From the NCBI GenBank assembly GCA_042577045.1, contig JBHPEK010000001.1, positions 15,173 to 79,172 of the forward strand: 64,000 bases of DNA, in the 5' to 3' direction. This DNA comes from Patescibacteria group bacterium. GTDB lineage: Bacteria; Patescibacteriota; Minisyncoccia; JAHISW01; Tagabacteraceae. Shown piece after piece: positions 18,326 through 36,134 of the stretch (position 1 is the stretch's first letter; each line of letters opens with the position of its first letter). The notes beneath the pieces are model-generated. The model made no database searches. It was not told the origin of the DNA and was given only the letters and a program-made list of their open reading frames with translations. The position numbers and the translations under genes are program-made.

Positions 18326-18344
18326 ATAAAATAAATTTAACATT

Positions 18345-18380
18345 TTTAGCATTTACTTACGATCGTAAGTAAATGCTAAA
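18345..18380. repeat. perfect 36-nt palindrome centred on ACGATCGT (family P)
   Basis: tttagcatttacttacga|tcgtaagtaaatgctaaa. Confidence 0.9.
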
Positions 18381-18400
18381 TTTTAATAAATTTTAAAACG

Positions 18401-18434
18401 TCCTACATTTGCTACGACCGTGACAAATGTGGGA
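18401..18434. repeat. imperfect family P palindrome (centre ACGACCGT)
   Basis: tcctacatttg...caaatgtggga arms. Confidence 0.6.
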
Positions 18435-18438
18435 CACT

Positions 18439-18472
18439 TATACACTTACCAACGATCGTAGATAAGTGTATA
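18439..18472. repeat. family P palindrome (centre AACGATCGTA)
   Basis: tatacactta...taagtgtata arms. Confidence 0.75.
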
Positions 18473-18496
18473 GAATAATAAAAATAAAAAAGAAAA

Positions 18497-18522
18497 CCGC
18501 CCGCGATTAAATCGGGGCGGGT
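18497..18522. terminator. GC-rich stem-loop, probably a bidirectional terminator
   Basis: accgcccgcg...cggggcgggt flanked by A and T runs. Confidence 0.5.
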
Positions 18523-18576
18523 TTTTAATTTTAGCTCTGAAAGATTTATGGTCCGAAGTCCCTGCCGGCAGGCAGG

Positions 18577-19284
18577 CTACCTACTACCGCACGAGGCGGA
18601 ACCCCACCGCGAACACGAAGCGCCAGCATAGTGCCAGTCGAGCACAGGACAACCCTCGTCTAGGTGGAGGCAGAGTGCGCGGTCAGACAACCCATAGCAA
18701 GATCCAGTAGCGTCCATATGATGATCAGGTCTATCGTGGATTCCGATAGCGATCACTTCTGTGTCAGTGAGACAGCTTTGGCCCTCTTTCTTGATCAGTT
18801 TCTCTGCCTTTTCAGGTGATTCGCCTAGCCTAGCTTCTCCGTTTTCCACATCATAAATCCAATAAGGCCTTTTCGGAACATCCACCACGTCGGTGATTTC
18901 GGTCGGATCCATGTGAGTAAATCCAGTCTTTTCGCCGTTCTTCACCATTGGCATTTGGTTGTAGATAGTCATGTAGATTCGGGGAACGACTGAAAGGATT
19001 GAAATGTTACCTTCGCCGAATGTCATCTCCCTGGCTCTTGAAAGAACCGCATCCTTTTGATCTGCTAGCATTTCCACGATTGCTCCGGGACATCCGCAAT
19101 CTTTCCATCTCTGGATTTGCGCATCAAACAGCTCTTCCAATTGTTTACGTCTAGCCTTTTTAGCCTCGGCGAGTAGCATGCCCTTGGCATTCCGAATCGC
19201 TTCTTCAATATTCGTGGTGGTGTAGATGTTTCGGAAAAGCGATACTAACTCGTCTGCCAGTTGATCTGTAGAAAGTTTATTCAT
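18577..19284 (-). CDS. hypothetical protein, GC-rich gene, Cys-rich C-terminus
   Basis: GGAGGT RBS 7 nt before the ATG at 19284; composition clearly GC-richer than its neighbours. Confidence 0.6.
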   Translation of the reverse strand: MNKLSTDQLADELVSLFRNIYTTTNIEEAIRNAKGMLLAEAKKARRKQLEELFDAQIQRWKDCGCPGAIVEMLADQKDAVLSRAREMTFGEGNISILSVVPRIYMTIYNQMPMVKNGEKTGFTHMDPTEITDVVDVPKRPYWIYDVENGEARLGESPEKAEKLIKKEGQSCLTDTEVIAIGIHDRPDHHMDATGSCYGLSDRALCLHLDEGCPVLDWHYAGASCSRWGSASCGSR

Positions 19285-19326
19285 AATTCTTACCTCCGTT
19301 TCTTTGTAAAGGGTTTTCATTTCTAT

Positions 19327-20403
19327 CTAATAATCCAATGTTTCGGTTATGTGGTATAACCCATCGTAGTTTCTTCCTGCTCCCCAAAGTTTATAATATA
19401 AACGAGCCATATTAGTTTCCGACAGATTCAATTTTTTTCTCTCCTGATTTATCGCTTCCAGAAGTTTTCCAATAGCCAAAACAGTTGCCAGACGTATTTG
19501 AATCTCCAAAGGAAAATTTTCCTCTATCTCCTCTCCCATCGAAATTTTATTCCGCAGAAATGGAGAATATTTAAAAATCTCTAAAATATATAAAATTTTC
19601 GGTAAAACACAATCGGCAACGACACTTAGACTTTCAACGTCTTTGATTTGTGGTAATGTGTCGCTACTTTGCGCCCTGCCATAATATTCTAGAAGAAAAA
19701 GAAGTGCTTTTTTGTGAAATGGAAGCCAATTGTCATATCTGGTACGATCTAGACTACGTTTATCATAATATGCTCCTGGAAAATCTTCCACCAGACGCTC
19801 ACAAATGCCATTGCCACCATCAAAACACCTATAATTTGCCTCTTTAAAAAGATTCGCAAATTGACCATTATATTTAGAAATTAAAACCCTGGCAATGTTT
19901 TTCCAAATTTGCATTCGTTTTTCAAGCAAAGGTAAATTCGAATCAACATTAAAAATTTCTCTCATTTGACTAATTTTAATGCCGTGCAAAAAATAAGGAT
20001 CTAATAGTGGAATTTTCTTTTCTATAATGGCTCTGGTGACACAGGCAGACACTCCGAAAGCACCTGTCCATTTTTTATCTTTCCAATTCGTATAAAATTT
20101 TATACTTCCTATTCCTGGCTCTTTGTGATATGCATTTATTGCCGTAACAATTCCCAACCATTGAATAAAATCGTCGTCATCGTGTGGATACTGCACTGGC
20201 TCTCTCCACTCAGGAATTTCAAAATCTTCCTCTGCCCATTGCTTGGCACGCTCCTCAAGTTTCTGCTTTTTTATTTTGACATGTCCGACAGCAACAAATT
20301 CATCGTCTTCATAAAAGCTTCTTGGGCTCGGCAACTGGTAAACACCAGTTCTGTTTTTGCGATTTTCAAAATAGCCAACAACCTTCTCATACCACGGATT
20401 CAT
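19327..20403 (-). CDS. queuosine-salvage family protein (DUF2419/Qng1-like)
   Basis: Recalled family pattern: FHKKALLFL, VADCVLPKIL..., EIQIRLATVLA, C-terminal YHITETLDY. Confidence 0.6.
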   Translation of the reverse strand: MNPWYEKVVGYFENRKNRTGVYQLPSPRSFYEDDEFVAVGHVKIKKQKLEERAKQWAEEDFEIPEWREPVQYPHDDDDFIQWLGIVTAINAYHKEPGIGSIKFYTNWKDKKWTGAFGVSACVTRAIIEKKIPLLDPYFLHGIKISQMREIFNVDSNLPLLEKRMQIWKNIARVLISKYNGQFANLFKEANYRCFDGGNGICERLVEDFPGAYYDKRSLDRTRYDNWLPFHKKALLFLLEYYGRAQSSDTLPQIKDVESLSVVADCVLPKILYILEIFKYSPFLRNKISMGEEIEENFPLEIQIRLATVLAIGKLLEAINQERKKLNLSETNMARLYYKLWGAGRNYDGLYHITETLDY

Positions 20404-20457
20404 TTTTTTGTCCTCCTTGTTAAAGATTTATTCTGGGTTTACTATACATATATTAGT

Positions 20458-22170
20458 ATGATTTGGCAAGACTATAAAGAAAAACTACCAAAAGAATATG
20501 CCGAGAAAGACCTGGCTGTAATTGAGCAGGCTTTTGACTTTGCATCCGAAATACACGAAGAAGAAAAAAGGCTTACGGGAGAAAAATATATTTACCACCC
20601 TGCTGAAGTTTCGCTAAATGTTGCAAAGTTAAAATTGGGAGCATCTTCTGTGGCCACTGCACTTCTTCATGACACATACGAAACAGACAATACTGTTCTA
20701 AAAAAAATCCGCAAAAAATTTGGCTCAGAAATTAGTTTTCTGGTAGATGGACTGAGCAAGGTAGACAAAGTAGAATATCAAGGAATAGAAAGAAGCGCTG
20801 AGTCCACAAGAAAAATGTTTATGGCCATGGCCCAGGATATCCGTGTGGTCATTATCAAACTTCATGATCGGCTTCACAATTTAAAAACTCTTCACGTCTA
20901 TTCTGAAGAAAAGCAAAAAAGAATAGCTATGGAAACATTAGAAATCTATGCACCCGTAGCAGATCGACTTGGTATGGGGGATTTGAAACTGCAATTGGAA
21001 GACTCTGCATTCGAATATGCTTACCCAAAAGAATATGCTTTTATTGTTCACGAAACGAAAGAAAAAGTTTCTGAGCGACAAAAATATCTTATAAAAAAAG
21101 TAATTCCTACGATTGAAAGAGAGTTAAAAAGAACAAATATTAAGACCATAGAAATAAAATATCGCGCAAAACACTATTATAGTTTATGGAAAAAACTTCT
21201 AAGGTATAACATGGACTGGTTTTCAATCTATGATCTTCTTGCCGTTCGAATTATTGTTAACTCCCTCGAAGACTGTTACATAACATTGGGGATTCTCCAC
21301 AAACTATGGAAACCACTGCCGGGAAGGATAAAAGATTACATATCCCTACCAAAACAAAATGGTTACAAAAGTTTACACACAACAGTTTTTTGTATTGATA
21401 ACAAAATTACAGAATTTCAGATACGAACTGAGGAGATGCACAAAGAAGCAGAATCTGGAATTGCTGCTCATTGGATATATAAAACTGGAGACAAAGACCT
21501 ACAAAAAGATCTAAAAAAGTTTGAATGGATAAAACAGCTTCAAGACTGGCAAAAAAGACTACACAAAGAAACCAAAAGTAAGGATTTTCTGGAATTTCTA
21601 AAAATTGACTTTTTTAAAGATAGGGTCTTCGTTTTAACCCCAAGAGGAGACATCATTGATCTACCAGAAGGAGCAACCCCATTAGACTTTGCCTATCACA
21701 TTCACACTGACGTTGGTAATTCTATTATAGGAGCCAAAGTTAATCACCACATAGTTCCTCTGTCTTATAAATTAATCTCTGGAGATATGGTAGAAGTGTC
21801 TTCTCAAAAAAACAAAAAACCAAGTCTAAAATCCCTAGAACACGCCACAACTTCTATCGCCAGAAATCACATTAAGTCTAGTTTAAAAAAACAAGGATTA
21901 ATTAGCGGGATTGAAAACACCCCAAGGCCATTGAGGTGCGACCTAAGCATAATTACAATCAATAAGGCAGATTTAATAAAAGAGATCGTTGCTGTTTTAT
22001 CTTCTTTTCGAATAAAAATTAGGAGCATACTTCCCAAAGAATCCGGCAGTAATTATCTAGAATTTTATGTAAGCTTTACTCCCAGAAATAAAAATCAAGT
22101 GGAAAGGGTAGTTACCCGATTAAAAACCATAAAAGGCGTAGAAGAAATTATACCAAACCTAAAAAACTAG
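20458..22170 (+). CDS. rel: RelA/SpoT-family (p)ppGpp synthetase/hydrolase
   Basis: HD domain, synthetase core (RIKDYISLPKQNGYKSLHT), TGS and ACT-like C-terminus. The ORF extension to 20125 overlaps the divergent gene and is rejected. Confidence 0.9.
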   Translation: MIWQDYKEKLPKEYAEKDLAVIEQAFDFASEIHEEEKRLTGEKYIYHPAEVSLNVAKLKLGASSVATALLHDTYETDNTVLKKIRKKFGSEISFLVDGLSKVDKVEYQGIERSAESTRKMFMAMAQDIRVVIIKLHDRLHNLKTLHVYSEEKQKRIAMETLEIYAPVADRLGMGDLKLQLEDSAFEYAYPKEYAFIVHETKEKVSERQKYLIKKVIPTIERELKRTNIKTIEIKYRAKHYYSLWKKLLRYNMDWFSIYDLLAVRIIVNSLEDCYITLGILHKLWKPLPGRIKDYISLPKQNGYKSLHTTVFCIDNKITEFQIRTEEMHKEAESGIAAHWIYKTGDKDLQKDLKKFEWIKQLQDWQKRLHKETKSKDFLEFLKIDFFKDRVFVLTPRGDIIDLPEGATPLDFAYHIHTDVGNSIIGAKVNHHIVPLSYKLISGDMVEVSSQKNKKPSLKSLEHATTSIARNHIKSSLKKQGLISGIENTPRPLRCDLSIITINKADLIKEIVAVLSSFRIKIRSILPKESGSNYLEFYVSFTPRNKNQVERVVTRLKTIKGVEEIIPNLKN

Positions 22171-23087
22171 ATACTAAAATTACTTAGCCAACTTTTATTT
22201 TCTTTGACCTCCTCTACACTATCTTGAATTGGTTCAGAAATTGTAGCCACACCAACCTTTGATAAAAAGTTTTTCAACTCCTCTTCCGAAAAAAATTCTA
22301 TAGAAATTTTCTTACCAGAAGCCTTCTTCTCAACGAAAACTCTAGTCCCTAAAGCATCAGAAAGTCTTTTCTGAAGATCATCTGCTCCTGAATCTTGTTG
22401 TACCTCCGGTTGTAAAACAGAATTTTGATGATTTTTTACAATTTCTCTAGAAAGCGCTTCGGCTTCTCGAACCGTCATCTTTCTGTAAATTATTTCTTTG
22501 TATAGATTTAATTGTTTATCCTTCTCTTTCGTTAAGCTTAAAAGTGGGCGAGTATGGCCTTCAGCAATTAACCCTTGTTGCAAACCATCTTGAATCTCTT
22601 GAGGAAGAGACAACAATCTAATTGTGTTTGAAACGAAGACCCTACTTTTTCCCATTTTGATACCAATCTCATGGTGTCTCATTTTAAAATCATTTACCAA
22701 CTGCTTGAAAGCAATGGCTCTTTCAATAGCACTTAAATCTTCTCTCTGAATGTTTTCTATAAGAGCAAGCTCTAATTTTACTTTTTCAGAAGGCTCTTCT
22801 CTGATAATTACAGGCACTTGGCTTAACCCAGCAAGCTGGGAAGCCCTCCACCTTCTTTCTCCCGCAATAAGCTCATATTCAACAACTGTACCAGTGGGAA
22901 CTTCTCTTTCTTGACGAATTACAACAAGTGGTTGTAAAACTCCATACTGCCTGATAGAATCAGAAAGTTCTTTTAGGGCATCTTCATTGAAAACGCGACG
23001 AGGTTGCATGGAATTTGGTCTGATTTTCTCAACCTCAACCCAAAACACTCCACTCTCTTTTCTTATTCTTGGTAGTTCTGTTGACAT
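22167..23087 (-). CDS. parB: ParB/Spo0J partition protein
   Basis: QPRRVF, GERRWRAS and HTH region; TATAAT 7 nt before the ATG at 23087. Confidence 0.85.
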   Translation of the reverse strand: MSTELPRIRKESGVFWVEVEKIRPNSMQPRRVFNEDALKELSDSIRQYGVLQPLVVIRQEREVPTGTVVEYELIAGERRWRASQLAGLSQVPVIIREEPSEKVKLELALIENIQREDLSAIERAIAFKQLVNDFKMRHHEIGIKMGKSRVFVSNTIRLLSLPQEIQDGLQQGLIAEGHTRPLLSLTKEKDKQLNLYKEIIYRKMTVREAEALSREIVKNHQNSVLQPEVQQDSGADDLQKRLSDALGTRVFVEKKASGKKISIEFFSEEELKNFLSKVGVATISEPIQDSVEEVKENKSWLSNFSI

Positions 23088-23130
23088 TATGTTTATTATA
23101 CAGAAATTGACTTTAGTATGCAAATTTTTG

Positions 23131-23212
23131 TGCCGTCGGTGGGAGTCGAACCCACATGAGTTGCCTCACACGATTTTGAGTCGTGCGCGTATACCAGTTC
23201 CGCCACGACGGC
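23131..23212 (-). tRNA. tRNA-Leu (CAA)
   Basis: Cloverleaf folded by hand; anticodon loop CTCAAAA; long variable arm; GGTTCGACTCC T-arm. Confidence 0.9.
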
Positions 23213-23236
23213 ATATATTAAAATTATAACAGTTTT

Positions 23237-24136
23237 TTATTTTTCACTAAACAAATCAGTGGTTAAGTATTTTTCTCCCTTGTCTGGAAAAATGACAACC
23301 ATTACTCCCGATTTAATTTTCTTGGCCATTTCCATCGCAGCATACATAGCCGCTCCGCTACTCATTCCAACAAAAATTCCTTCTTTTTTAATGATTTGTC
23401 TCGTTGTTTCAAATGCAGTCTCTGTTTCAACCATAATTGTTTCATCAATTTCTGAAGGGTCATAAATTGAGGGCACTAGTGCTTCTTCCATGTTTTTTAA
23501 TCCTTGTATGTAATGACCCTTAACTGGATGCGCGCAAATAATTTTTATTTTGGGATTGTTTTCTTTAAGGGCTTTCCCCACTCCCATGATTGTGCCGGAT
23601 GTTCCTATTGCAGAAACAAAATAATCAATTTTACCATTTGTTTGTTTCCAAATTTCTTCACCCGTTGTTTTATAGTGTGTAATCTTGTTATATTTGTTTG
23701 AAAACTGATCTGGCATAAAATATTTTTTAGGACTTGCCTTAACAAGATCTCTTGCCTTAATTATTGCACCGTCAGTTCCCAATTTTGCATCTGTCAACGT
23801 AATCTTTGCGCCAAAAGCTTCAATCATTTTTACTCTTTCGATAGAGACTGCTTTGCTCATAATAATCTCCACACCATACCCCTTTAATGCCCCTATCATT
23901 GCTAACCCAATACCCGTATTTCCAGACGTTGGTTCAATTATTGTTTTTCCCTTTACCAACGAGCCGTCTGCTTCTGCTTGCTCAATCATTTTCAATGCTA
24001 TTCTGTCTTTTATGCTACCAGTTGGATTATTTCCTTCAATTTTAGCGTAAATAGTAACATTTTTGTTTGGATTTAATTTATTTATCCTAACAAGAGGAGT
24101 ATTTCCAATGGTCTGTAATATATTTTCGTATATCAT
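23237..24136 (-). CDS. cysK: cysteine synthase (O-acetylserine sulfhydrylase)
   Basis: PLP lysine motif NPTGSIKDRIA; GNTG; GTSGT. Confidence 0.85.
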   Translation of the reverse strand: MIYENILQTIGNTPLVRINKLNPNKNVTIYAKIEGNNPTGSIKDRIALKMIEQAEADGSLVKGKTIIEPTSGNTGIGLAMIGALKGYGVEIIMSKAVSIERVKMIEAFGAKITLTDAKLGTDGAIIKARDLVKASPKKYFMPDQFSNKYNKITHYKTTGEEIWKQTNGKIDYFVSAIGTSGTIMGVGKALKENNPKIKIICAHPVKGHYIQGLKNMEEALVPSIYDPSEIDETIMVETETAFETTRQIIKKEGIFVGMSSGAAMYAAMEMAKKIKSGVMVVIFPDKGEKYLTTDLFSEK

Positions 24137-24209
24137 AATTGATATTGTATAACGTTTACGAGTATCCGAAGTTTTTGCCTCGCTTCTTTATTGTAATATA
24201 AATGGAAAA

Positions 24210-24232
24210 AAGGGCATAGTAGATATGCCCTT
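24210..24232 (-). terminator. terminator of 24265-24678
   Basis: aagggcat...atgccctt with a T-run on the minus strand. Confidence 0.6.
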
Positions 24233-24264
24233 ATAGTTACAGGTGTACTCATTTTGTTAAAGAG

Positions 24265-24678
24265 CTATATTTCATCTTCAGTAAACACTTTAATATTATT
24301 CTTTTTTAGAATTTTAGCAAATACGCCATCACCGTCAATTAATTTTCCAGAAAAAGTGCCATCATAGACCTTGCCAGAACCACAAGATGGAGATTTTGAT
24401 TTTATAATTGCTTCATCGCAATTTGCAAATAACGCAATTTTTAATGCTTCTTTTGCCCCTCTTTCGAATTGAGTGGTAACATCTTCTCCTGTTTTTGTAA
24501 AAACTTTATCTTTCTTTTGTTCAGCAGGAGTTCTTGGTGTTGTTAATCCACCCAATTGTTCTGGGCAGACAGGAATTGCTTTACCTTGTTTAACTAACTC
24601 AACAACTTTCTGGCAAGGTCTTGCATCATCATCCCACCTACATTTTATTCCTGCTAAACAGGCACTGACAATTTTCAT
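24265..24678 (-). CDS. DUF523 family protein (TudS-like Fe-S thiouracil desulfidase family)
   Basis: MKIVSACLAGIKCRWDDD N-terminus and conserved Cys pattern. Confidence 0.65.
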   Translation of the reverse strand: MKIVSACLAGIKCRWDDDARPCQKVVELVKQGKAIPVCPEQLGGLTTPRTPAEQKKDKVFTKTGEDVTTQFERGAKEALKIALFANCDEAIIKSKSPSCGSGKVYDGTFSGKLIDGDGVFAKILKKNNIKVFTEDEI

Positions 24679-24827
24679 AATAATTAAGACGAAATTAATT
24701 GATATTTAAAGTGTTCGCAAAGAGAGGCTCCGAGTAATATTGCACCTAACGTTTCGGTATATCTGATATTTTGCAGAACGTAGATTCTACAAAGGACCGT
24801 CCTTTGTAACAATTAGATGGTACTCGC

Positions 24828-25523
24828 TCACCCAACAACTGCCTCTACTTCTGCTACTTTATTTTTTATCTCTAATATTTTCGAAAGTTCGGGAAACAAT
24901 GTGCCATTTTGCAATCCCATAAGTAAGTCGTCTAAGCAAGAAAATTCGGGATAGGGGTGTAGGTCATAAATTTTTCCTTCAAATTCCACGCCATTCAAAA
25001 TAATTGGCAACTCATCAAGCACATATGAAGATAATTTTTCTAACTTACTTAAAGCTAATCCACTTGCTCTTGAGCCTAAATTCTCTTGAACTATCTTTAT
25101 TATAAAATCATGGAATTGATTATTTTGTTTAAATTCATTAAGAAAAATTTTGATTTTGTCTTTATAATATTGAGACTTTTTTACGTCATCCCACCTGCCA
25201 ATTTTAATAAAAGATTGTTTTTCCTTTGGCAAGCTACGCACTATTTCTTCTATAGACTTTTCAATTTCCATGCCCTTTCTTAATGTAACTTGTAATGCTC
25301 TTTCAGAACTATAACCATCAAAAACTTCGTAGTTTATCGCGTGGACTGTATCTGCTATCAGAACCAAAACATCATCTTTGGTATTTTCTAAAGCCCAGCG
25401 AAGATATGCTCTTATGTTTTCTTTAGAAAAATATTTATTCCCCAAACTTATGCCCACAAAAATATTAAACTTTTTTGATTTAATATCTTGTTCCGTACAA
25501 TTCAAGAAAGACTTGATTATCAT
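24828..25523 (-). CDS. tRNA-dependent cyclodipeptide synthase (CDPS, AlbC family)
   Basis: VGISLGNKYFSKENIRAYLRWA matches recalled AlbC IGISAGNSYFSQKNTVMLLQWA (catalytic Ser). YVLDELP matches YVLAEAP (Tyr/Glu). About 230 aa, the family size. Confidence 0.75.
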   Translation of the reverse strand: MIIKSFLNCTEQDIKSKKFNIFVGISLGNKYFSKENIRAYLRWALENTKDDVLVLIADTVHAINYEVFDGYSSERALQVTLRKGMEIEKSIEEIVRSLPKEKQSFIKIGRWDDVKKSQYYKDKIKIFLNEFKQNNQFHDFIIKIVQENLGSRASGLALSKLEKLSSYVLDELPIILNGVEFEGKIYDLHPYPEFSCLDDLLMGLQNGTLFPELSKILEIKNKVAEVEAVVG

Positions 25524-25562
25524 ATAATGTTACTATACAGTAGTGTAAAAATAACTCAAATT

Positions 25563-25593
25563 ATGAAATATTTTATCATTACATACGGCTGTG
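25563..25593 (+). pseudogene. orphan copy of the miaB 5' end (MKYFIITYGC...)
   Basis: 27 of 31 nt identical to 26471-26501, then diverges into a GC-rich hairpin. Confidence 0.6.
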
Positions 25594-25603
25594 TTTTCAA
25601 CTC

Positions 25604-25650
25604 CCCGCCCGCCACCGCAAGCATGAGCTTGCTCAGGCGTTGCGAGCGGG
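25604..25650. repeat. GC-rich nested hairpin element
   Basis: cccgcccgc...gcgagcggg outer stem, gcaagc-atga-gcttgc inner stem. Confidence 0.6.
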
Positions 25651-25697
25651 CCACCCTGGGCACAAAATAAAAATCAAATTAAAATTAAACAAAATAC

Positions 25698-25727
25698 ACC
25701 ACTTATCCACGATCGTAAGTAAGTGGT
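25698..25727. repeat. family P palindrome (centre ACGATCGT), imperfect
   Basis: accactta-tcc-acgatcgt-aag-taagtggt. Confidence 0.7.
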
Positions 25728-25871
25728 ATTATGTATTGTGTTTTTATTTCTAACATTGCTAGTTTGGAAAAACACCGAACTGAAAACTAAACCACTTATC
25801 CCGTGTTATGTGATGTAACCAGAAATTTCTTTTCCTTATTATTCTTTTTTCGATAATTTATTTTAGGGCTT

Positions 25872-26276
25872 TCAACGACTACAATATTCAACTAAATCAG
25901 AACTATCAGAACCAGTTTCGCATATGTTGTTTTCTTGAGAAACAATGCTCACATTCCATTCATTATCTTTTTTTGTTAGTAGATAATTAAAACCACCAAT
26001 TTTTACAACACTATGTTTGTCATCAAGATCAACAACAAAATAAGATGTTACTGGCAAGCATTCTGATATATTATATTTTTCACAGTACACACTAATTTTC
26101 TGAATAATTTTTGTGATTTCATTAGATTGTTCCACAGATTGCAGGCTTGATTTTTGCCATACGTAAACTCCACCGCCAACAACTACGGCAGTTACTATTA
26201 CAGCGATGATTGTTATCCAAATATGCTTCGAGCTTTGGACAGGCCCATTTGATTGAGGAATGTTTTGTTCGTTCAT
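25872..26276 (-). CDS. membrane-anchored hypothetical protein
   Basis: Single N-terminal TM helix (IWITIIAVIVTAVVVGGGVYVW), four Cys in the ectodomain. Confidence 0.5.
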   Translation of the reverse strand: MNEQNIPQSNGPVQSSKHIWITIIAVIVTAVVVGGGVYVWQKSSLQSVEQSNEITKIIQKISVYCEKYNISECLPVTSYFVVDLDDKHSVVKIGGFNYLLTKKDNEWNVSIVSQENNICETGSDSSDLVEYCSR

Positions 26277-26461
26277 ATGTATTTAGATTAAATTATTTCC
26301 TTACCAAGATAATATCACAAACCATAGTCGACCTTAAACAAATTGCCAAAAAAATCTTAAAAAAATAATAAAGAAATTTCTGGCTATTTCATATAGTTCG
26401 TTATTATACATACTATTACTTATACTGTATCACTTTGTAATTGGTGATACAATGTAATACA

Positions 26462-28498
26462 ATGTCAACCATGAAATATCACATCATCACATACGGCTGT
26501 GGAGCCAATCATGCCGATTCAGAAAGGATCGAAGCGAAGCTTCACGCACTTGGACACACAAAAGCCGCCAACAAGAAGGTGGCTAATTTGATAGTGATTA
26601 ATTCTTGCTCGGTGCGCAAGTCAGCTATGGATCGTCTTTATGCACAAATAAACAAACTAAAAACCAAGAAAAAGAAAGTAATTTTGGCAGGATGCATCTT
26701 AGAAAAAGACCTAAAAAATTTGAAAGACAAGGTAAGTGAAGTTTGGCACCCAGATGAGTACTTCGACTTAATGCCAATTTATGCAGATGAAGTTGGTGTG
26801 TCTGTCCCCATTATGACGGGGTGCAACAACTTTTGCACATATTGTGCTGTTCCTTACACCCGTGGACGAGAAAAATCTCGCCCAGCAAAAGATATTGTCG
26901 ATGAAATAAAGAAACTTGTGGCAAGCCCCGCCGGGCGGGATAAAAAAGAAATTTGGCTATTGGGTCAAAACGTAAACAGTTACCGATCTGGTAAAACAAA
27001 CTTTCCAAAACTTTTACAGAAAATAGATAAAATACCCGGCAAGTTTTGGGTTCGTTTTATTTCCCCACACCCAAAAGACTTCTCGATTGAATTAATAAAA
27101 ACAATTAAAAAATGTGAAAAAATTACTGAATACATAAACGTGCCTGTTCAGTCTGGAGACAATGAAATACTAAAAAGAATGAATAGAAACTACACGCGCG
27201 AACACTATATAAAACTTGTAAACAGAATTAGAAAAGAAATACCAGACGCATCTATATCCACAGATACCATTGTTGGCTTCCCTGGGGAAACAAAAAAACA
27301 ATTCTTGAATACTAAAGATTTATACAAAAAATTAAAATTTGATATGGCATTTCTAGCTGAATACTCTCCTCGTCCGGGGACTTTTTCAGCAATGATGATG
27401 AAAGACAACGTAAGCCATACCGAAAAAGAAAAACGAAAAAAAGAACTAAATGACATTTTAACCAAAACTGCACTAGAGAATAATAAAAAATATATTGGAA
27501 AAACAGTAGAAGTTTTAAATGGACGAACTCGCACCAATAAGCTGGTTACCCTACACGATACCGAGTATCGTGTAGGGCCAAGTGAATTCTTGAATGTAAA
27601 AATTACAGGAGCTGAATCTTGGAGACTAAAAGGGGAAATTGTTAAAAAAATAGTAGTTGTGCTTGGGCCTACTGCTTCTGGAAAAAGTGGTTTAGCTGTT
27701 GAGATAGCTCAAAAATTCCCTTCTGAGATTATCTCTGCAGATTCTAGACAAATTTACAAAGGAATGAATATCGGTAGTGGAAAAATAACAAAAAAGGAAA
27801 TGAAAGGAATAAAACATCATCTTCTTAACATAGTTAGCCCAAGAAAAATATATTCGGCAGGAGAATTCAAAAAAGAAGCTCAAAAATGTATCGAAGGAAT
27901 ATTGAAACAAGACAAAACGCCTATCATTTGTGGTGGAACAGGTTTTTATATCAACTCGCTTTTGGGTGGAAACATTGCCGAAGTAGAACCAGATTGGAAC
28001 TTGAGAAAAAAACTTGAGGAAAAAACTACAAAACAACTTTTTGGCCAACTGAAAAAACTAAAACCCCAAAGAGCAAAAAATATTGATTCCCAAAACAAAC
28101 GCCGACTAATACGGGCTATTGAAATAGCCAAATCTGCATCGAAGTCGGACTTCGACGCAATATCGAAGTCCGACTTCGATGTGTTGTATTTAGGAATTAA
28201 AAAAGACGGAGAAAAGCTAAAAAAAATAATTGATAAGAGGGTGGACGAAATGATTGAAGAAGGATTAGAAAAGGAAGTAAAAAAACTTGTTAAAAAATAT
28301 GGGTGGACGAAGACTTTAAAAAATACAATTGGATACCAAGAATGGAAAGAAGACAATTCAGAAGAAAAGATAAAGGCCCATTCACACCAATACGCAAAAA
28401 GACAAATAACTTGGTTTAAGAAATATGCACCGAAAACACACTGGCTTGGCAACAAAAAAGAAGCATTAAAATTAGTAAGAAACTTTTTAAAGAATTAA
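26462..28498 (+). CDS. miaB-miaA: fused MiaB (radical SAM methylthiotransferase) - MiaA (tRNA dimethylallyltransferase)
   Basis: UPF0004 N-domain, CNNFCTYC radical SAM cluster and TRAM domain, followed by a P-loop GPTASGKS and ADSRQIYKGMNIGS. Start is at 26462 or 26471. Confidence 0.85.
   Translation: MSTMKYHIITYGCGANHADSERIEAKLHALGHTKAANKKVANLIVINSCSVRKSAMDRLYAQINKLKTKKKKVILAGCILEKDLKNLKDKVSEVWHPDEYFDLMPIYADEVGVSVPIMTGCNNFCTYCAVPYTRGREKSRPAKDIVDEIKKLVASPAGRDKKEIWLLGQNVNSYRSGKTNFPKLLQKIDKIPGKFWVRFISPHPKDFSIELIKTIKKCEKITEYINVPVQSGDNEILKRMNRNYTREHYIKLVNRIRKEIPDASISTDTIVGFPGETKKQFLNTKDLYKKLKFDMAFLAEYSPRPGTFSAMMMKDNVSHTEKEKRKKELNDILTKTALENNKKYIGKTVEVLNGRTRTNKLVTLHDTEYRVGPSEFLNVKITGAESWRLKGEIVKKIVVVLGPTASGKSGLAVEIAQKFPSEIISADSRQIYKGMNIGSGKITKKEMKGIKHHLLNIVSPRKIYSAGEFKKEAQKCIEGILKQDKTPIICGGTGFYINSLLGGNIAEVEPDWNLRKKLEEKTTKQLFGQLKKLKPQRAKNIDSQNKRRLIRAIEIAKSASKSDFDAISKSDFDVLYLGIKKDGEKLKKIIDKRVDEMIEEGLEKEVKKLVKKYGWTKTLKNTIGYQEWKEDNSEEKIKAHSHQYAKRQITWFKKYAPKTHWLGNKKEALKLVRNFLKN
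28136..28158. repeat. TCSGA-centred element, class D, inside the miaA part (in frame)
   Basis: gcatcgaagtc-g-gacttcgacgc. Confidence 0.8.
28160..28182. repeat. TCSGA-centred element, class D, inverted partner, in frame
   Basis: atatcgaagtc-c-gacttcgatgt; with 28136-28158 it encodes SKSDFDAISKSDFD. Confidence 0.8.
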
Positions 28499-28502
28499 TT
28501 TT

Positions 28503-29627
28503 TTATTGAGAGATTGAGTTGGCCAGCTGATAAGCTTTTATCTTTGTGTCTTTGGCTTCATTGTAATATCCATTAAATTCTTCTTCCCCCATAAAAGCCA
28601 CTGCCTTCTTAAAACTCTTAATGGCATCATTGAATAAATCTGCTGACCGAATAATACTATCTACTGTGCCCGAAAAACCAGATGGTGTTCTTTTGGCTCT
28701 TAAGTCTTCTGTATTACTTTTTGCTTCATCAAACAAAACCTTAGCTTGACCCAAATAAAGAGATGGGGTCAATTCATTTTCTTCATCTATTTCAGAAATA
28801 GTATCATTGAGATATCCATTTCCTCTTTTTAACATCTCAACATAAACATCCACTTCGTTGTAAAACTTATCCAGCCTTTCTTTATCGGCAACAATGGCAA
28901 GCTCTTTTGCTTTCTGTTGTTCCAACTCAAGTTGAGATTGCGTGTTGGCAATGCTGTTTTGTGTTTGGTACAACTCTTGTTTCGTTGATTTAAGTTGGTC
29001 TTCGGTATTTTGCTTCTGGGAAGCAGTTTGTTGGAGTTGAGATTCAGCCTGCTGACGAGCAGATTTTTCTTCAACAATAGATTTGCGTAAATCTGTAATT
29101 TCACCTGCCGTTTCAGACTCAGACTGATTGACAAGATCTAAGGCACCCTGATAAAGCTTTTGTGCTTCTTTATAAAATTTAAACTCTGAATTATTTATAG
29201 CTTCACTATCTTTCAGTAAAACTGCGACATCAAACCACTCTTCGTTTTCTGATGCGGTTTTTGCCTTAAAATAGTTCTCTTCAGCAATCAAAAGTTTTTT
29301 TGTCTTTTCAACCTGAAAACTAATATTAGAATCTTCGGGTTCTCTTTCCTTCATCTTGTCATACAAAACTAAGGCTGCAGAATAATTACCATTTTCAAAT
29401 TCAAAAGAGGCATTTTTTACTAACTTATTGAAACTGGCTTTTTGAAACACGCCATAAGCACCAACAGCACTAGCTGAAAAAAGAAACAAAACAACTGCTG
29501 AAACAATTATTGTTTTCTTTTTTCCTTTTTGAGGCTTGTCTTGGGATTTGGGAATTTTCGGCTCTTCATGAAAAATAGGCTTGTCTACCTTAGGTGGTTC
29601 TGGTTTTTTAAAAATTATTCCATCCAT
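28503..29627 (-). CDS. membrane-anchored coiled-coil hypothetical protein
   Basis: TM helix near residue 40, Q/E-rich coiled coil. Confidence 0.55.
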   Translation of the reverse strand: MDGIIFKKPEPPKVDKPIFHEEPKIPKSQDKPQKGKKKTIIVSAVVLFLFSASAVGAYGVFQKASFNKLVKNASFEFENGNYSAALVLYDKMKEREPEDSNISFQVEKTKKLLIAEENYFKAKTASENEEWFDVAVLLKDSEAINNSEFKFYKEAQKLYQGALDLVNQSESETAGEITDLRKSIVEEKSARQQAESQLQQTASQKQNTEDQLKSTKQELYQTQNSIANTQSQLELEQQKAKELAIVADKERLDKFYNEVDVYVEMLKRGNGYLNDTISEIDEENELTPSLYLGQAKVLFDEAKSNTEDLRAKRTPSGFSGTVDSIIRSADLFNDAIKSFKKAVAFMGEEEFNGYYNEAKDTKIKAYQLANSISQ

Positions 29628-29690
29628 TACTTTTTATTATACCCCTTCAACATTATTTAGGGCAAGTAAAAAAATAACCCACTTAGTGGG

Positions 29691-30131
29691 TTATTTTAAG
29701 ATTAAGCGATAATATCCATATCGTTTCCTAAATCCTGCCTTTTCATACATTGCTCTAGCGGGTATCCTGCCTGACTCACTTATTAAATCTATGCAGTAAG
29801 CCTTTCTTCTCTTGGCCTCATCTATCAATGCTTGGACTATTCTTTTTCCTAGACCTTTTCCTCGATGGTTTTCATCGACAACTACGTCTTCAATAACTCC
29901 AGTCTTTCGGATAAGGGTTTCTTTGAAATAAATACTACCCATACCAACAATGTGCTTTTTATGAAAAACAACGCATATTTCCACATCTTGTTGTCTTAAC
30001 TTGCGGTGCAAGTCCTGTGGCCAAAGTTTTTTGGCGCTTTTGCTTAATTGTTTAAGCAAGCTGTTTATGTCTGCCAAACTGTTTTCTGGTATTGAAGATT
30101 TAAAAGATTTAGTGATTATCTCCGTTTTCAT
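29691..30131 (-). CDS. GNAT-family N-acetyltransferase
   Basis: Acetyl-CoA motif VVVDENHRGKGLGKRIVQALI. Confidence 0.8.
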   Translation of the reverse strand: MKTEIITKSFKSSIPENSLADINSLLKQLSKSAKKLWPQDLHRKLRQQDVEICVVFHKKHIVGMGSIYFKETLIRKTGVIEDVVVDENHRGKGLGKRIVQALIDEAKRRKAYCIDLISESGRIPARAMYEKAGFRKRYGYYRLILK

Positions 30132-30291
30132 AAAGAACCTCCCCTTTTTCTTATTCTGTGCGAATTATATATAATATTGCAAAAAAGTCAATCAAAAATA
30201 TACTCTATAAAACAAATGTCCTAAATCTGTGTTGTAAGAACCGAGTCCCTAAATATTGCCTTTTTTGCTATAATAATATATATTAATTTAC

Positions 30292-30453
30292 ATGTCCCAA
30301 GATAAACTAATCAAAATGCTTTGCGGTGATTGTAAGAGAATCAATTACTGGACAAGAAAAAATAAGAAAAAAGTTGAGCGGAAAATAGAACTCAAGAAAT
30401 TTTGTAAATGGTGCAAGAAGCGCACTATCCACAAGGAAGGAAAGAAGAAATAA
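30292..30453 (+). CDS. rpmG: 50S ribosomal protein L33 (53 aa; below the ORF-track cutoff)
   Basis: MSQDKLIKMLCGDCKRINYWTRKNKKKVERKIELKKFCKWCKKRTIHKEGKKK; rpmG followed by tRNA-Trp synteny. Confidence 0.85.
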   Translation: MSQDKLIKMLCGDCKRINYWTRKNKKKVERKIELKKFCKWCKKRTIHKEGKKK

Positions 30454-30477
30454 AACACCGCTCAAAGAGGCGGTGTT
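30454..30477 (+). terminator. rpmG terminator
   Basis: aacaccgc...gcggtgtt plus T residues. Confidence 0.65.
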
Positions 30478-30517
30478 TTATTAAACATAGAAAAATAATA
30501 TAATATAAAGAGCAATT

Positions 30518-30588
30518 GCGGGATTAGTTAAGTGGTATAATAATGGTCTCCAAAACCATGGTCGGGGGTTCGATTCCCTCATCCCGTG
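30518..30588 (+). tRNA. tRNA-Trp (CCA)
   Basis: Hand-folded cloverleaf; anticodon loop CTCCAAA; GGTTCGATTCC T-arm. Confidence 0.9.
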
Positions 30589-30642
30589 CACGAAACTTGA
30601 CTACTAAATGGTTAAGGGTCTATGATTTAACAATACAAAAAC

Positions 30643-30727
30643 GCATGGGTGGCAGAGTGGTTAAATGCAACAGTCTGTAAAACTGTCGTCCTAACGGGCT
30701 ACGGGGGTTCGAATCCCTCCCCATGCA
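30643..30727 (+). tRNA. tRNA-Tyr (GTA)
   Basis: Anticodon loop CTGTAAA, long variable arm, GGTTCGAATCC T-arm; TTGACT-18-TATGAT promoter upstream. Confidence 0.9.
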
Positions 30728-30734
30728 CACAAAA

Positions 30735-33401
30735 TTATTTAGCTATTGTTTTAGCAGGTTTTTTGGCTGGTGCTCTCTTCTTTTTGGGTATTCCGTCAAT
30801 AATTAATTCTCCCTTCTGTACCTTTACGGTAACTGCATCACCACTAGAGATTTTACCAGAAATAATAAGTTCGGCAACAACATTAAGAATTTTATTTTGA
30901 ATAAGACGTTTTAATGGTCTTGCCCCATATTGAATACTAAAACCTTTCTGTGCTAGATAGGTCAATGCCTCAGCAGAAACCTTTAGCTTTACCCCCCTAT
31001 CGTGCATTCTTTCTTCAATTTCTTTAATTTGAATTTTAACAATATCTTTCAAGTTATCTTCAGTTAACCGATTGAAAACAATTACCTCGTCTAATCTGTT
31101 CAAAAACTCGGGTCTAAACTTGGCCTCTAGGGATTTATAAATTTTTTCCTTCAAGTTTTGTTCTTTATTTGTTTGCTCTGGTCCTGTTGAAAAACCAATT
31201 TTAGAAATTTTCTTGGCAAATTCTGAACCAACATTTGAAGTCATAATAAGAATTGTGTTCTTGAAATTCACATGCCTACCTTTTGAATCCGTTAAACGTC
31301 CGTTGTCTAACACTTGAAGCATAATGTTGAAAACTTCTGGATGTGCTTTCTCTATCTCGTCAAAAAGAACAACGGAATAAGGTCTGTGCCTAATAATCTC
31401 CGTCAACTGCCCTCCTTCATCGTGGCCAACATATCCGGGAGGAGAACCAATAAGTTTAGAAATAGCGTGTTTCTCCATATATTCAGACATATCTACTCGA
31501 ACAAGCGATTTTTCATCATTAAACATTAAATTGGCCAGAACACGCGCCAATTCTGTTTTCCCAACACCGGTTGGACCCAAAAACATAAATGAACCAATTG
31601 GACGTTCCATATCAGAAATACCAGCGCGAGAACGCCTAATGGCCTGAGCTATCTTTGTAATCGCCACATCTTGACCAACAATATGTTTTTTTAGCGATGT
31701 TTCTACCTGAAGGAGTTTTTGAGCTTCTGTTTCCAACATCTTGCTAACCGGAACCCCTGTCCAACGGGAAACAACATCGGCAATTTCTTCTTCGGTAATT
31801 TCTTCTTTCAGAACTCTTCTTAAAATTTGTAACTTTTTAAGACGATTTTCTTTTTTACGTAATTCACCTTCAGTCTGAGGAATGTTTGCATAACGAATTT
31901 CGGCAACCCTGGTAAGATTACCCCTTCTTTCTTCATTGTCGGCCTCGAGACGCATCACTTCTAAATTACTCTTCAATTGTCTAATGTCTGTGATGGTTTC
32001 TTTTTCGTTTTTCCATTTCAATTCTAGGGCCGAAATTTGTTCTTTTAAGTCGTCAATTTGCTTGTCTATCTTTTTTATTTTTGTTTTAGATTTTATGTCA
32101 GATTTTAGCGACTCTTTTTCAATTTCAAGATTCCTAATCTCTTTATGCACTTTTTCTAACTCCTTGGGCATGCTGTCGAGATCAAGTCTAAGAGCTGAAG
32201 CAGATTCGTCGATAAGATCAATCGCTTTGTCTGGCAAAAATCTATCCGTGATATATCTACTTGAAAGATGTACCGCCGATTTAATTGCAGTATCTGTAAT
32301 CCGCACTCCGTGGTGCAATTCATATTTTTCTTTAATTCCTCTTAAGATGGCGATTGTATCATCTTGAGACGGCTCCTCAACAAATATTGGCTGAAAACGC
32401 CTAGTAAGCGCTCCGTCTTTTTCGATATGTTTTTGATATTCCTTAAGAGTGGTAGCACCCACCGCACGAAGCTCTCCTCTGGCTAATGCTGGTTTTAAAA
32501 GATTGGAGGCGTCAATAGCTCCTTCAGCACCACCGGCGCCAACTAACGTATGAAGCTCATCGATAAAAAGAACCACCCTTCCTTTGGCCCGCTCTATCTC
32601 CCGCATAACAGTTTTCAATCTTTCTTCAAACTCTCCACGATATTTAGTACCAGCAACCAAGGAGCCAATATCAAGCGCAATAACCTCTTTTTCTTTTAGA
32701 GACTCTGGCACATTGCCTTGAGCAATTCTTTGACTCAAGCCTTCAACAACAGCTGTTTTTCCAACACCTGCTTCGCCAATTAAAACCGGATTGTTTTTGG
32801 TGCGCCTAGATAAAATCTGCATAATACGCCTGATCTCGTCATCTCGCCCAATAATTGGATCTAATTTATCTTCGCGCGCCATTTTAGTAAGGTTTCTAGA
32901 ATATTTTTCCAAAACCTTCAATCCACTTTTTTCAGTAACATCGTGAACTTGTTCACTACCGCCCAGATTCTTTAAAATATCTAAAACTTTTTCTTTGTCA
33001 ACTCTGAGCTTGTTTAAAACTTCTTTTGCTCGAGAAGAAACTTCGCAAAGACCAAGCAAAAGGTGTTCGGTGGAAATATAGTTGTTTCCAATTGACTTGG
33101 AAGCGTTAAACGATGCCTCTACAACGCGACCCAGGTCTGGAGTTAAGTAAACTTGTTGAGTCGACATAACGACGTTTGGATTGCCAATATCTTCAAGTTC
33201 TTCCAAAACCGAATCGGTTAAAAAATTTATATCAACTTCTAATTTATCAAAAATAGACAAAACGACGCCATCGTCCTGCAAAATAAGCGCAGCTAAAAGA
33301 TGGAGTGTGTCTATTTGGCTTTGCCCTCGTTCCATGGCTAGCTCATGTGCTTTGCGAATGGCTTCTTGAGCCTTTTGTGTAAAATTTGAAAATGGTAACA
33401 T
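30735..33401 (-). CDS. clpB: ClpB disaggregase
   Basis: Clp N-domain, two AAA+ modules ([16 protein letters not shown]), long middle coiled coil. Confidence 0.95.
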
Positions 33402-35427: not shown

Positions 35428-36081
35428 TTATTCTATTATGAACTCTTTTATGTCTTCGAACCTGCTCTTACTTTTGGTTTTGCAGCTTTTTAGAAATTCT
35501 TCATATTCGTCGTAATTTTTTAAAGGAGTCCATTTGTATTCTTCAAGAAATTTTTTTGCCTTACGCCAATCTTTTAAGCCCTCCTCTTTCCACCTAGGCT
35601 CAAAAAGATCTAGCGGGTTTAGATAAATATATTGTTTTAAATAATTTAAATATTCATCTTTATCTATTAGAACTGCCTTGAACTTTCCCTGAAACAAAAC
35701 TCCACTTCTCTCATATTTTTGATTAAAATAATTAGTGTAGCCAGTTCCCAGTTTTTGCATAAAACTGGAAATTCCGCCATCTTCCAATTGTTCAAGAATT
35801 AAATGAAAATGATTAGGCATTAAACAAGAGCCATAAAATTTAACTACGGACTCTCTGTCCTCTTTTTTTACTATGTGGGAAGTCGGACTTCCCACAGATA
35901 CCGCTCCTTCGCTAACACTTATACGACGAAACAGATTAATAGAAGAGTTCTTATCATTAAAATCTCTTAAGCTAAAAAGGAAGCGATGGTAGTCTTTGTC
36001 GTCCATAAAAACCTTACGTTTGTCTGTCCCACGGTTAAAAACGTGATAAAAATGGTTATTTGCAAATTGAGGTTTTTTCAT
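35428..36081 (-). CDS. HUH/Y1 tyrosine transposase, IS200/RAYT-like, copy 2
   Basis: MPNHFHLIL (HUH), QYIYLNP (Tyr). Start is at 36081 (MKKPQF...) or 36108. Confidence 0.8.
   Translation of the reverse strand: MKKPQFANNHFYHVFNRGTDKRKVFMDDKDYHRFLFSLRDFNDKNSSINLFRRISVSEGAVSVGSPTSHIVKKEDRESVVKFYGSCLMPNHFHLILEQLEDGGISSFMQKLGTGYTNYFNQKYERSGVLFQGKFKAVLIDKDEYLNYLKQYIYLNPLDLFEPRWKEEGLKDWRKAKKFLEEYKWTPLKNYDEYEEFLKSCKTKSKSRFEDIKEFIIE
35874..35896. repeat. class B element inside the RAYT-2 CDS (in frame, encodes VGSPTSH)
   Basis: tgtgggaagtc-g-gacttcccaca followed by gatacc. Confidence 0.85.
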
Positions 36082-36107
36082 TACTTTTATTATATATACA
36101 TATTTCA

Positions 36108-36134
36108 TCTGTGGGAAGTCCGACTTCCCACAGA
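36108..36134. repeat. TCSGA-centred element, class B, perfect 27 nt
   Basis: tctgtgggaagtc-c-gacttcccacaga. Confidence 0.9.

Follow-up and report, generated by a model that had tools for sequence, protein, structure and literature searches.

A predicted XYP-type cyclodipeptide synthase in a Patescibacteria genome and the occurrence of its clade in Patescibacteria and DPANN archaea

The CDPS gene

A gene for a tRNA-dependent cyclodipeptide synthase (CDPS) lies on a 64-kb stretch of contig JBHPEK010000001.1 from a Patescibacteria group bacterium. This whole stretch is called the window below, and positions are counted from its first nucleotide. The gene is an ATG-to-stop open reading frame (ORF) of 231 codons on the minus strand (Table 1). 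The local order reads RelA/SpoT (plus strand), followed on the minus strand by ParB, tRNA-Leu(CAA), a cysteine synthase of the CysK/M type, a TudS-like DUF523 protein and the CDPS. It continues with a membrane protein of 134 amino acids (aa; minus), a MiaB-MiaA fusion (plus), a 374-aa protein without Pfam matches (minus), a GNAT gene (minus), tRNA-Trp, tRNA-Tyr and ClpB (minus).

The original prediction, made from the sequence alone, had described the product as a CDPS-family protein, and this is borne out by profile, structure-database and fold comparisons. The Pfam CDPS family PF16715, whose hidden Markov model (HMM) had been proposed as a check, matches residues 14-199 with 63.8 bits against a curated gathering score of 27, and the NCBIfam model for tRNA-dependent cyclodipeptide synthases, TIGR04539, scores 85.5 bits against a curated cutoff of 45. 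Among all PDB sequences searched with phmmer, the top matches are seven entries of ParcuCDPS, the enzyme of Parcubacteria bacterium RAAC4_OD1_1 (7QB8 and point mutants; E~1e-34, residues 6-218). Lower-ranking matches are to other CDPSs: 9GUN, 6EZ3, 9J61, BtCDPS, AlbC, Rv2275 and YvmC. The AlphaFold2 model, for which 44 sequences were aligned, reaches a mean predicted local distance difference test (pLDDT) of 96.6 and a predicted template modelling (TM) score of 0.91 without disordered regions. All 50 of its 50 best Foldseek matches in the PDB are CDPS structures, with ParcuCDPS at the top (TM 0.80). Model and matches together describe a Rossmann fold resembling that of class-I aminoacyl-tRNA synthetases, of about 230 aa, that has no tRNA anticodon-binding domain. 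Because the HMM scores above curated cutoffs, the PDB match and the fold agree, the 231-aa protein is a genuine member of the CDPS family and its membership is not in doubt.

The gene is intact and under purifying selection. Pairwise Nei-Gojobori comparisons with six relatives gave ratios of nonsynonymous to synonymous substitutions (dN/dS) of 0.12-0.14 at dS values of 1.1-1.8, which are near saturation and make the ratio a rough one. No second CDPS copy was found in the 64-kb window. A recent transfer was also considered from composition, where the signal is weak and not decisive: the GC content of the gene (0.315) is about 2 standard deviations under the mean of the window genes (0.362 +/- 0.024), but GC at third codon positions (GC3) is ordinary, less than 1 standard deviation from the window mean.

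The occurrence of a CDPS in a reduced genome had been called unexpected, which overstates the case. Characterisation of a CDPS from Parcubacteria, CDPS 90 (the same enzyme as ParcuCDPS), dates from 2018 and its crystallisation from 2022 (PMC5816076, PMC7613923), and after the 2018 report a CDPS in a reduced genome is no surprise. Moreover, exactly this protein is already listed by NCBI under the title 'tRNA-dependent cyclodipeptide synthase [Patescibacteria group bacterium]', and it has at least 100 relatives in Patescibacteria and DPANN archaea. The window CDPS is an ordinary new, uncharacterised member of a family already known from ultra-small bacteria. For the gene itself little changes, as it is recognisable and already named, and its group has one characterised and crystallised CDPS.

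Catalytic residues and subfamily

The motifs GISLGNKYFS (residues 24-33), YVLDELP (167-173) and HPYPE (189-193) were read from the DNA, and the codons of S26, D58, Y167, E171, Y191 and P192 were checked directly against the window. The phmmer alignment of the window CDPS with ParcuCDPS has one single-residue gap on each side, and because the two gaps cancel, residue numbers coincide at all key positions. S26, Y167, E171 and Y191 are identical to the residues of the same numbers in ParcuCDPS, where they are the conserved active-site residues (PMC7613923). D58 of ParcuCDPS is also present in the alignment. This aspartate is essential in ParcuCDPS, in which D58A and D58N lose >90% of activity and are termed inactive (<1% of wild type) in the section on mutagenesis, and S26 and D58 have been proposed to form a Ser/Asp dyad (PMC7613923). 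D58 of the window protein is predicted to polarise S26 in the same way.

Conservation across the clade agrees with these assignments. S26, N29, D58, Y167, E171 and P192 are invariant in 44 relatives of 33-77% identity, Y191 is at least 90% conserved among them, and nearly all members of a larger set of ~100 sequences keep the heptad S-N-D-Y-E-Y-P. The original prediction had placed the catalytic Ser in GISLGNKYFS and the Tyr and Glu in YVLDELP, and it had read Y-P by hand alignment at the position that separates the subfamilies; both readings hold in the proper alignment.

The XYP subfamily has Tyr-Pro at AlbC positions 202-203, whereas NYH enzymes have Tyr-His (PMC7613923). By alignment the window CDPS belongs to the XYP subfamily because Y191-P192 occupy these positions, and ParcuCDPS is likewise XYP. 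The 'X' position (AlbC 40) is Asn, N29, invariant across the clade. In a neighbour-joining (NJ) tree that took in no NYH enzymes, the window protein and CDPS 90, itself classed as XYP, fall into one clade.

Specificity pockets and predicted product

Substrate-binding pockets of CDPSs have been described by two sets of AlbC positions, 33-35-65-67-119-185-186-200 for P1 and 152-155-156-159-204-206-207 for P2, and the His-accepting enzyme has the motifs GAYAWELY in P1 and FEWKYTR in P2 (PMC5816076). These letters map to G22-A24-Y55-A57-W112-E174-L175-Y189 and F144-E147-W148-K151-Y193-T195-R196 of ParcuCDPS. The prediction of specificity residues, which had been suggested earlier as a check, was run in the same register and gave FGLAWIIH for P1 and IENSESC for P2 of the window CDPS.

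Y55, E174 and Y189 jointly select histidine in ParcuCDPS. E174A abolishes His use there, cyclo(Leu-Pro) reaches 84% with the double mutant Y55V+E174L, and cyclo(Phe-Pro) reaches 70% with E174L+Y189L (PMC7613923). The window CDPS does not keep this triad and has L55/I174/H189 in its place. Among the characterised XYP motifs (Table 2 of PMC5816076), the nearest P1 is FGLAWSLL, with Phe in P1 and the first five residues, FGLAW, identical to ours, followed by LGLAWIGC (Phe/Gly?) and then FGLGC[VI]F[MF] (Leu/Ile). Because the triad reads L/I/H and the motif FGLAWIIH, we predict with moderate confidence a hydrophobic or aromatic P1 substrate (Phe, Leu or Tyr type) and not His. The product probably contains no His and would differ from that of ParcuCDPS, since the pockets, the triad and the subclade are all different. 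The window CDPS is a natural variant of ParcuCDPS in which the positions that engineers mutated for specificity are already hydrophobic, and it has modest value as a test case for the P1 specificity rules of XYP enzymes.

Comparison with characterised CDPSs

ParcuCDPS produces cyclo(His-Pro) (44%) along with cyclo(His-Glu) (56%; PMC5816076) and was later engineered as well as crystallised (7QA*/7QB8 entries; PMC7613923). Besides being in the same clade and giving the best sequence and structural matches, it is equal in length to the window CDPS and shares N29 and P192 in addition to S26, D58, Y167, E171 and Y191. Like the window CDPS, it comes from a bacterium of the candidate phyla radiation (CPR) and has no obvious tailoring genes. 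The two enzymes differ in both pocket motifs, and they fall in different subclades of the NJ tree.

The enzyme with P1 FGLAWSLL was compared by pocket motif only. By the row order of the published table, which is how we read the assignment, it is CDPS 91 of Methylovulum miyakonense, making the cyclodipeptides cFF/cFY/cFL. It shares F-G-L-A-W and the XYP type, but the last three P1 residues are SLL against IIH and its P2, LNYSTYA, is unrelated to IENSESC. AlbC of Streptomyces noursei (3OQV/4Q24) has the same family and fold, with S37, Y178 and E182 at a constant offset of 11 from S26, Y167 and E171, and has Asn at position 40 as the window CDPS does. In contrast, this prototype of the NYH enzymes carries His at 203 where the window CDPS has Pro, and overall similarity is very low (E 3e-5). 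AlbC acts in a cluster with a cyclodipeptide oxidase, whereas no such partner is present beside the window CDPS. The second-closest solved structure is a putative CDPS of Porphyromonas gingivalis (9GUN; E 5.7e-15, TM 0.72-0.80), which differs in its conventional host-associated Bacteroidota origin and is 26% identical in the structural alignment.

Genomic neighbourhood

The window is bacterial DNA, and the genes that surround the CDPS on its contig, MiaB-MiaA included, are bacterial. Encoded in the window are the bacterial DNA polymerase III alpha subunit (DnaE), GyrB, topoisomerase I (TopA), ClpB, HtrA, SerRS, the PheRS beta subunit, LepA, DprA, ParB and RelA/SpoT.

The original prediction correctly named a DUF523/TudS-like gene and cysK as neighbours (Table 1). 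Both are co-directional with the CDPS, with gaps of 149 and 128 bp along the three genes. For comparison we took 51 CDPS loci from species-representative genomes, 80 from metagenomes and 7 from an exact-protein lookup, 138 altogether including the window and 110 when made unique by CDPS DNA. The tblastn queries run against their flanks were TudS, CysK, ParB, the membrane protein, MiaB-MiaA and the coiled-coil protein of the window. In none of the 137 other loci (109 unique by CDPS DNA) do the flanks searched contain a homologue of TudS or CysK, and a conserved CDPS-TudS-CysK operon, looked for in 51 and then in all 137 other loci, was rejected. As the adjacency is not conserved, it appears coincidental and without functional signal.

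The lack of a classical tailoring enzyme, also pointed out earlier, holds for the annotated ORFs up to 4 kb on either side, none of which has a cytochrome P450, cyclodipeptide oxidase or methyltransferase domain; no 2-oxoglutarate-dependent oxygenase or prenyltransferase is found among these neighbours either. Since a tailoring gene is missing next to the CDPS, the pathway in this organism likely stops at the unmodified cyclodipeptide.

One related locus, L110 (metagenome contig Ga0209514_10007544, Patescibacteria), is syntenic with window positions 17996-32471. Gene order is kept for ClpB (59% identity), MiaA (46%), ParB (52%), RelA/SpoT (51%) and the TopA C-terminus. L110 also has a CDPS between ParB and ClpB; it is only 44% identical to the window CDPS, falls in a different subclade (P1 WGVGWHFI), is located across MiaA from where the window has its CDPS, and shares 11 bp with an overlapping SET-domain gene. 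This locus has no counterpart of the CysK, TudS and 134-aa membrane-protein genes of the window. The ParB-ClpB interval is variable, since the two CDPSs differ in subclade, position and partner, and the two genomes carry different CDPS types.

Taxonomic distribution

A word-indexed protein search returned relatives in 102 clusters at 90% identity, with E-values down to 1e-145 and the exact sequence included. Titles of the genomic locus records are mostly those of Patescibacteria lineages or DPANN-type archaea, although such titles are unreliable for contigs of metagenome-assembled genomes (for example 'Gammaproteobacteria', 'Bdellovibrionales' and 'Victivallales'). The domain was therefore assigned from neighbouring marker genes, in four contexts (L052/L053, L054/L055, L057 and L006); for L056 and L058 the neighbouring genes are ambiguous. 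The CDPS clade occurs commonly in both Patescibacteria and DPANN archaea, and the literature that we searched contained no survey of CDPSs in either group.

In NJ trees the window CDPS nests in a tight subclade with P1 FGLAW[IL][ILF]H and 60-75% identity, and the ParcuCDPS-like pocket with E174 (YGLAWELY) is found in another subclade. The closest relatives with verified context (L052/L053, L054/L055 and L057) are archaeal and 67-73% identical to the window CDPS. The gene for P0010 (73% identical) adjoins ribosomal protein L15e and a three-domain Lig1-type ATP-dependent DNA ligase. That for P0023 (67%) adjoins L37ae, RNA polymerase subunit RPAB4, prefoldin and diphthamide synthase, and that for P0024 (67%) exosome RNase PH, Rpb6, L7Ae and S28e; all three contexts are archaeal. 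On the next branch out, L006 (58%) has the bacterial neighbours MurA, Era, tail-specific protease and CTP synthase, as recognised in their translations. Because the closest context-verified relatives are archaeal and the window copy is bacterial, the NJ tree and these few verified contexts suggest a CDPS transfer between DPANN archaea and Patescibacteria, which may have run in either direction. Viral carriage was considered as the vehicle and set aside, with no relative found on the viral contigs of IMG/VR.

SET, GNAT and S51 partners across the clade

ORFs around the CDPS were clustered in the 110 unique loci. A gene for a small SET-domain protein (PF00856) lies within 300 bp of the CDPS in 14 cases, and one for a small GNAT acetyltransferase (PF00583) in 9. 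When the count is limited to the 68 loci that extend 600 bp or more to either side of the CDPS, SET and GNAT genes are each adjacent in 10, and never both together; about 30% of related loci have one or the other beside the CDPS. SET genes often overlap the CDPS on the same strand and occur in bacterial as well as archaeal contexts, and one database protein (P0058, 374 aa) is a CDPS-SET fusion. A Peptidase_S51 gene (dipeptidase E-like) is found within ~2.5 kb of the CDPS in at least five loci (L014, L017, L028, L112 and L119). Our literature search met no paper linking CDPSs with SET domains.

This partner pattern belongs to the family and not to the window locus. Neither tblastn nor a SET HMM run on the six-frame translation found a SET homologue in the 64-kb window, and SET, CDPS-type GNAT and S51 partners were likewise looked for elsewhere in the window by these searches and not found. 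The only GNAT in the window is 4.2 kb from the CDPS and 20-28% identical to the CDPS-adjacent GNATs.

We give even odds to the view that the window CDPS is part of a mobile trait, stand-alone or of two genes, moving between two ultra-small episymbiont radiations, CPR and DPANN. If the SET proteins tailor diketopiperazines or otherwise partner the CDPS, they would represent a new type of CDPS pathway, which would also suggest that the lifestyles of CPR and DPANN have cyclodipeptides in common as a chemical tool. The clade shared by Patescibacteria and DPANN, the apparent transfer and the SET and GNAT partners may be of interest for episymbiont biology and natural-product enzymology, and these family-level patterns are more novel than the window gene.

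Proposed function and alternative explanations

With family membership, fold, conservation of catalytic residues, purifying selection and the bacterial contig all shown here, we infer that the gene encodes an active, stand-alone tRNA-dependent CDPS of the XYP subfamily, in the ParcuCDPS-like clade of Patescibacteria and DPANN archaea (probability about 85%); its substrates are likewise predicted. By analogy with the work on AlbC and ParcuCDPS, a first aminoacyl-tRNA would put its aminoacyl group in P1 and transfer it to S26, polarised by D58. A second aminoacyl-tRNA would then supply its residue from P2 to give a dipeptidyl-enzyme, which would cyclise with the help of Y167, E171 and Y191 and release a 2,5-diketopiperazine.

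Several points weigh against this reading. The nearest characterised enzyme, ParcuCDPS, is only 28-30% identical in the Foldseek structural alignment, and the rough dN/dS ratio has been mentioned above. The authors of the pocket scheme rate it less reliable for XYP enzymes and P2 as not predictive (PMC5816076). H189 leaves a polar group in P1 that is compatible with Tyr or even His as substrate. Residue 193, a P2 position directly after Y-P (codon 24945-24947), is Glu here and Gly in nearly all of the ~100 clade members.

The polar H189, together with an E147 in P2 that both enzymes share and the standing of ParcuCDPS as the closest characterised and solved relative, would fit a functional ParcuCDPS orthologue making cyclo(His-Pro) and cyclo(His-Glu). 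We regard this as unlikely, however: two of the three residues required for His are hydrophobic here (Y55 to L, E174 to I), and in ParcuCDPS mutation of E174 alone abolished His use and mutation of both residues switched the enzyme to Leu (PMC7613923). The subclade in which the E174 pocket occurs is also a different one. The unusual G193E, the absence of a linked tailoring or export gene and the unconserved neighbourhood could point instead to a protein of CDPS fold that has ceased to make cyclodipeptides, be it a relic in decay or an enzyme transferring aminoacyl groups from tRNA to some other acceptor. Such a loss of function is quite unlikely for an intact, full-length ORF with every catalytic residue conserved, a dN/dS of ~0.13 and a confident model free of disorder, and stand-alone CDPSs, CDPS 90 among them, show activity when expressed on their own (PMC5816076).

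A functional unit of the CDPS with the TudS-like desulfurase and CysK, for instance a pathway to a sulfur-containing diketopiperazine or a link to thiolated tRNA, would account for the shared strand and short gaps. It would also suit the sole terminator-like site that a scan found in the CDPS-CysK stretch, which lies after TudS in the TudS-CysK gap (24232-24210), with none found between CDPS and TudS. Yet neither neighbour recurs in the 137 other loci, syntenic L110 lacks both, separate promoter-like sites precede TudS, and TudS and CysK are salvage and housekeeping enzymes; we consider such a unit very unlikely. Hardly credible is a misjoin of archaeal DNA to a bacterial contig by assembly or binning, in spite of the archaeal origin of the closest context-verified relatives and the low GC of the gene. 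The sequence is continuous, with ParB, RelA/SpoT and a tRNA on one side and MiaB-MiaA and ClpB on the other, and GC3 is normal. The nearest archaeal copy is only 73-75% identical, so that a recent chimeric join is not indicated, and the syntenic Patescibacteria contig L110 has a CDPS in the same ParB-ClpB interval.

Upstream region and other features of the window

The region upstream of the CDPS is 348 bp long and has 31% GC apart from a GC-rich hairpin (CCCGCCCGCCACCGCAAGC...GCGAGCGGG) at ~25600-25665, which occurs nowhere else in the window and is followed by no U-tract on either strand. A candidate promoter-like site ends 9 nt before the ATG (Table 1); promoter-like sites in the CDPS region are not above shuffled expectation. 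Rfam searches over the whole 348 bp, hairpin included, gave nothing at gathering thresholds, and a limit of E 10 brought only chance-level matches. On this ground a known RNA such as a riboswitch or T-box was rejected; the fold z-score is -1.9.

A 31-nt direct repeat of the first miaB codons occurs at 25563-25593 and 26471-26501 (87% identity, 908 bp apart). Between the two copies lie the hairpin and the 134-aa membrane-protein gene (25872-26276, minus), and the start codon of the CDPS falls 40 bp beyond the left copy, outside the pair. The pair resembles a scar left when the 5' end of miaB received an insertion.

The tRNA modification ms2i6A37 is made by two enzymes, MiaB and MiaA. In the window they form a single 685-aa ORF (26441-28498, plus), with the MiaB part (UPF0004 and radical SAM) at residues 12-294 and the MiaA part (IPP transferase) at 437-661. 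In the stretch of L110 examined, only a separate MiaA homologue of 332 aa was found.

Table 1. Features of the CDPS locus and examples of partner genes at related loci
Feature	Position	Strand	Basis
CDPS gene, 231 aa, XYP subfamily, ParcuCDPS-like clade	24828..25523	minus	ORF, HMMs, PDB match, AlphaFold2, Foldseek, dN/dS
S26 codon, predicted acyl-enzyme nucleophile (AlbC S37, ParcuCDPS S26)	25446..25448	minus	alignment; invariant in 44 relatives
D58 codon, predicted partner of S26 (Ser/Asp dyad)	25350..25352	minus	aligned with ParcuCDPS D58; invariant in 44-relative alignment
Codons Y167-V-L-D-E171, predicted catalytic Tyr and Glu (AlbC Y178, E182); Y167 25023-25025, E171 25011-25013	25011..25025	minus	alignment, conservation
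Codons Y191-P192, XYP signature (AlbC 202-203)	24948..24953	minus	alignment, conservation
Promoter-like site TTGAGT-16-TATAGT (candidate)	25532..25559	minus	weak, consensus-only match
DUF523/TudS-like 2-thiouracil desulfurase, downstream neighbour, not linked to CDPS	24265..24678	minus	PF04463, 154.8 bits
Cysteine synthase (CysK/M type), not linked to CDPS	23237..24136	minus	TIGR01136, 381 bits
SET genes beside CDPS (examples)	L110 4697-5164; L019 10668-11132; L010 2664-3140; L002 3813-4250		PF00856
GNAT genes beside CDPS (examples)	L011 9564-10004; L016 8744-9199; L112 1566-2000; L080 6726-7172		

Other genes of the window were noted in passing. A queuosine salvage protein (PF10343; 19327-20403, minus) is encoded less than 5 kb from the TudS-like gene, and these two salvage-type genes, for nucleobases or nucleosides, are consistent with a scavenging lifestyle. 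A 226-aa ORF (35428-36108, minus) matches an IS200-like Y1 transposase (PF01797, E 8e-9), a mobile-element gene in a small genome. Finally, a 779-aa ORF (3659-5998, minus) has a weak match to the TraG/TraD C-terminus (PF12696, E 3.6e-6) and may encode an ATPase resembling type IV coupling proteins.

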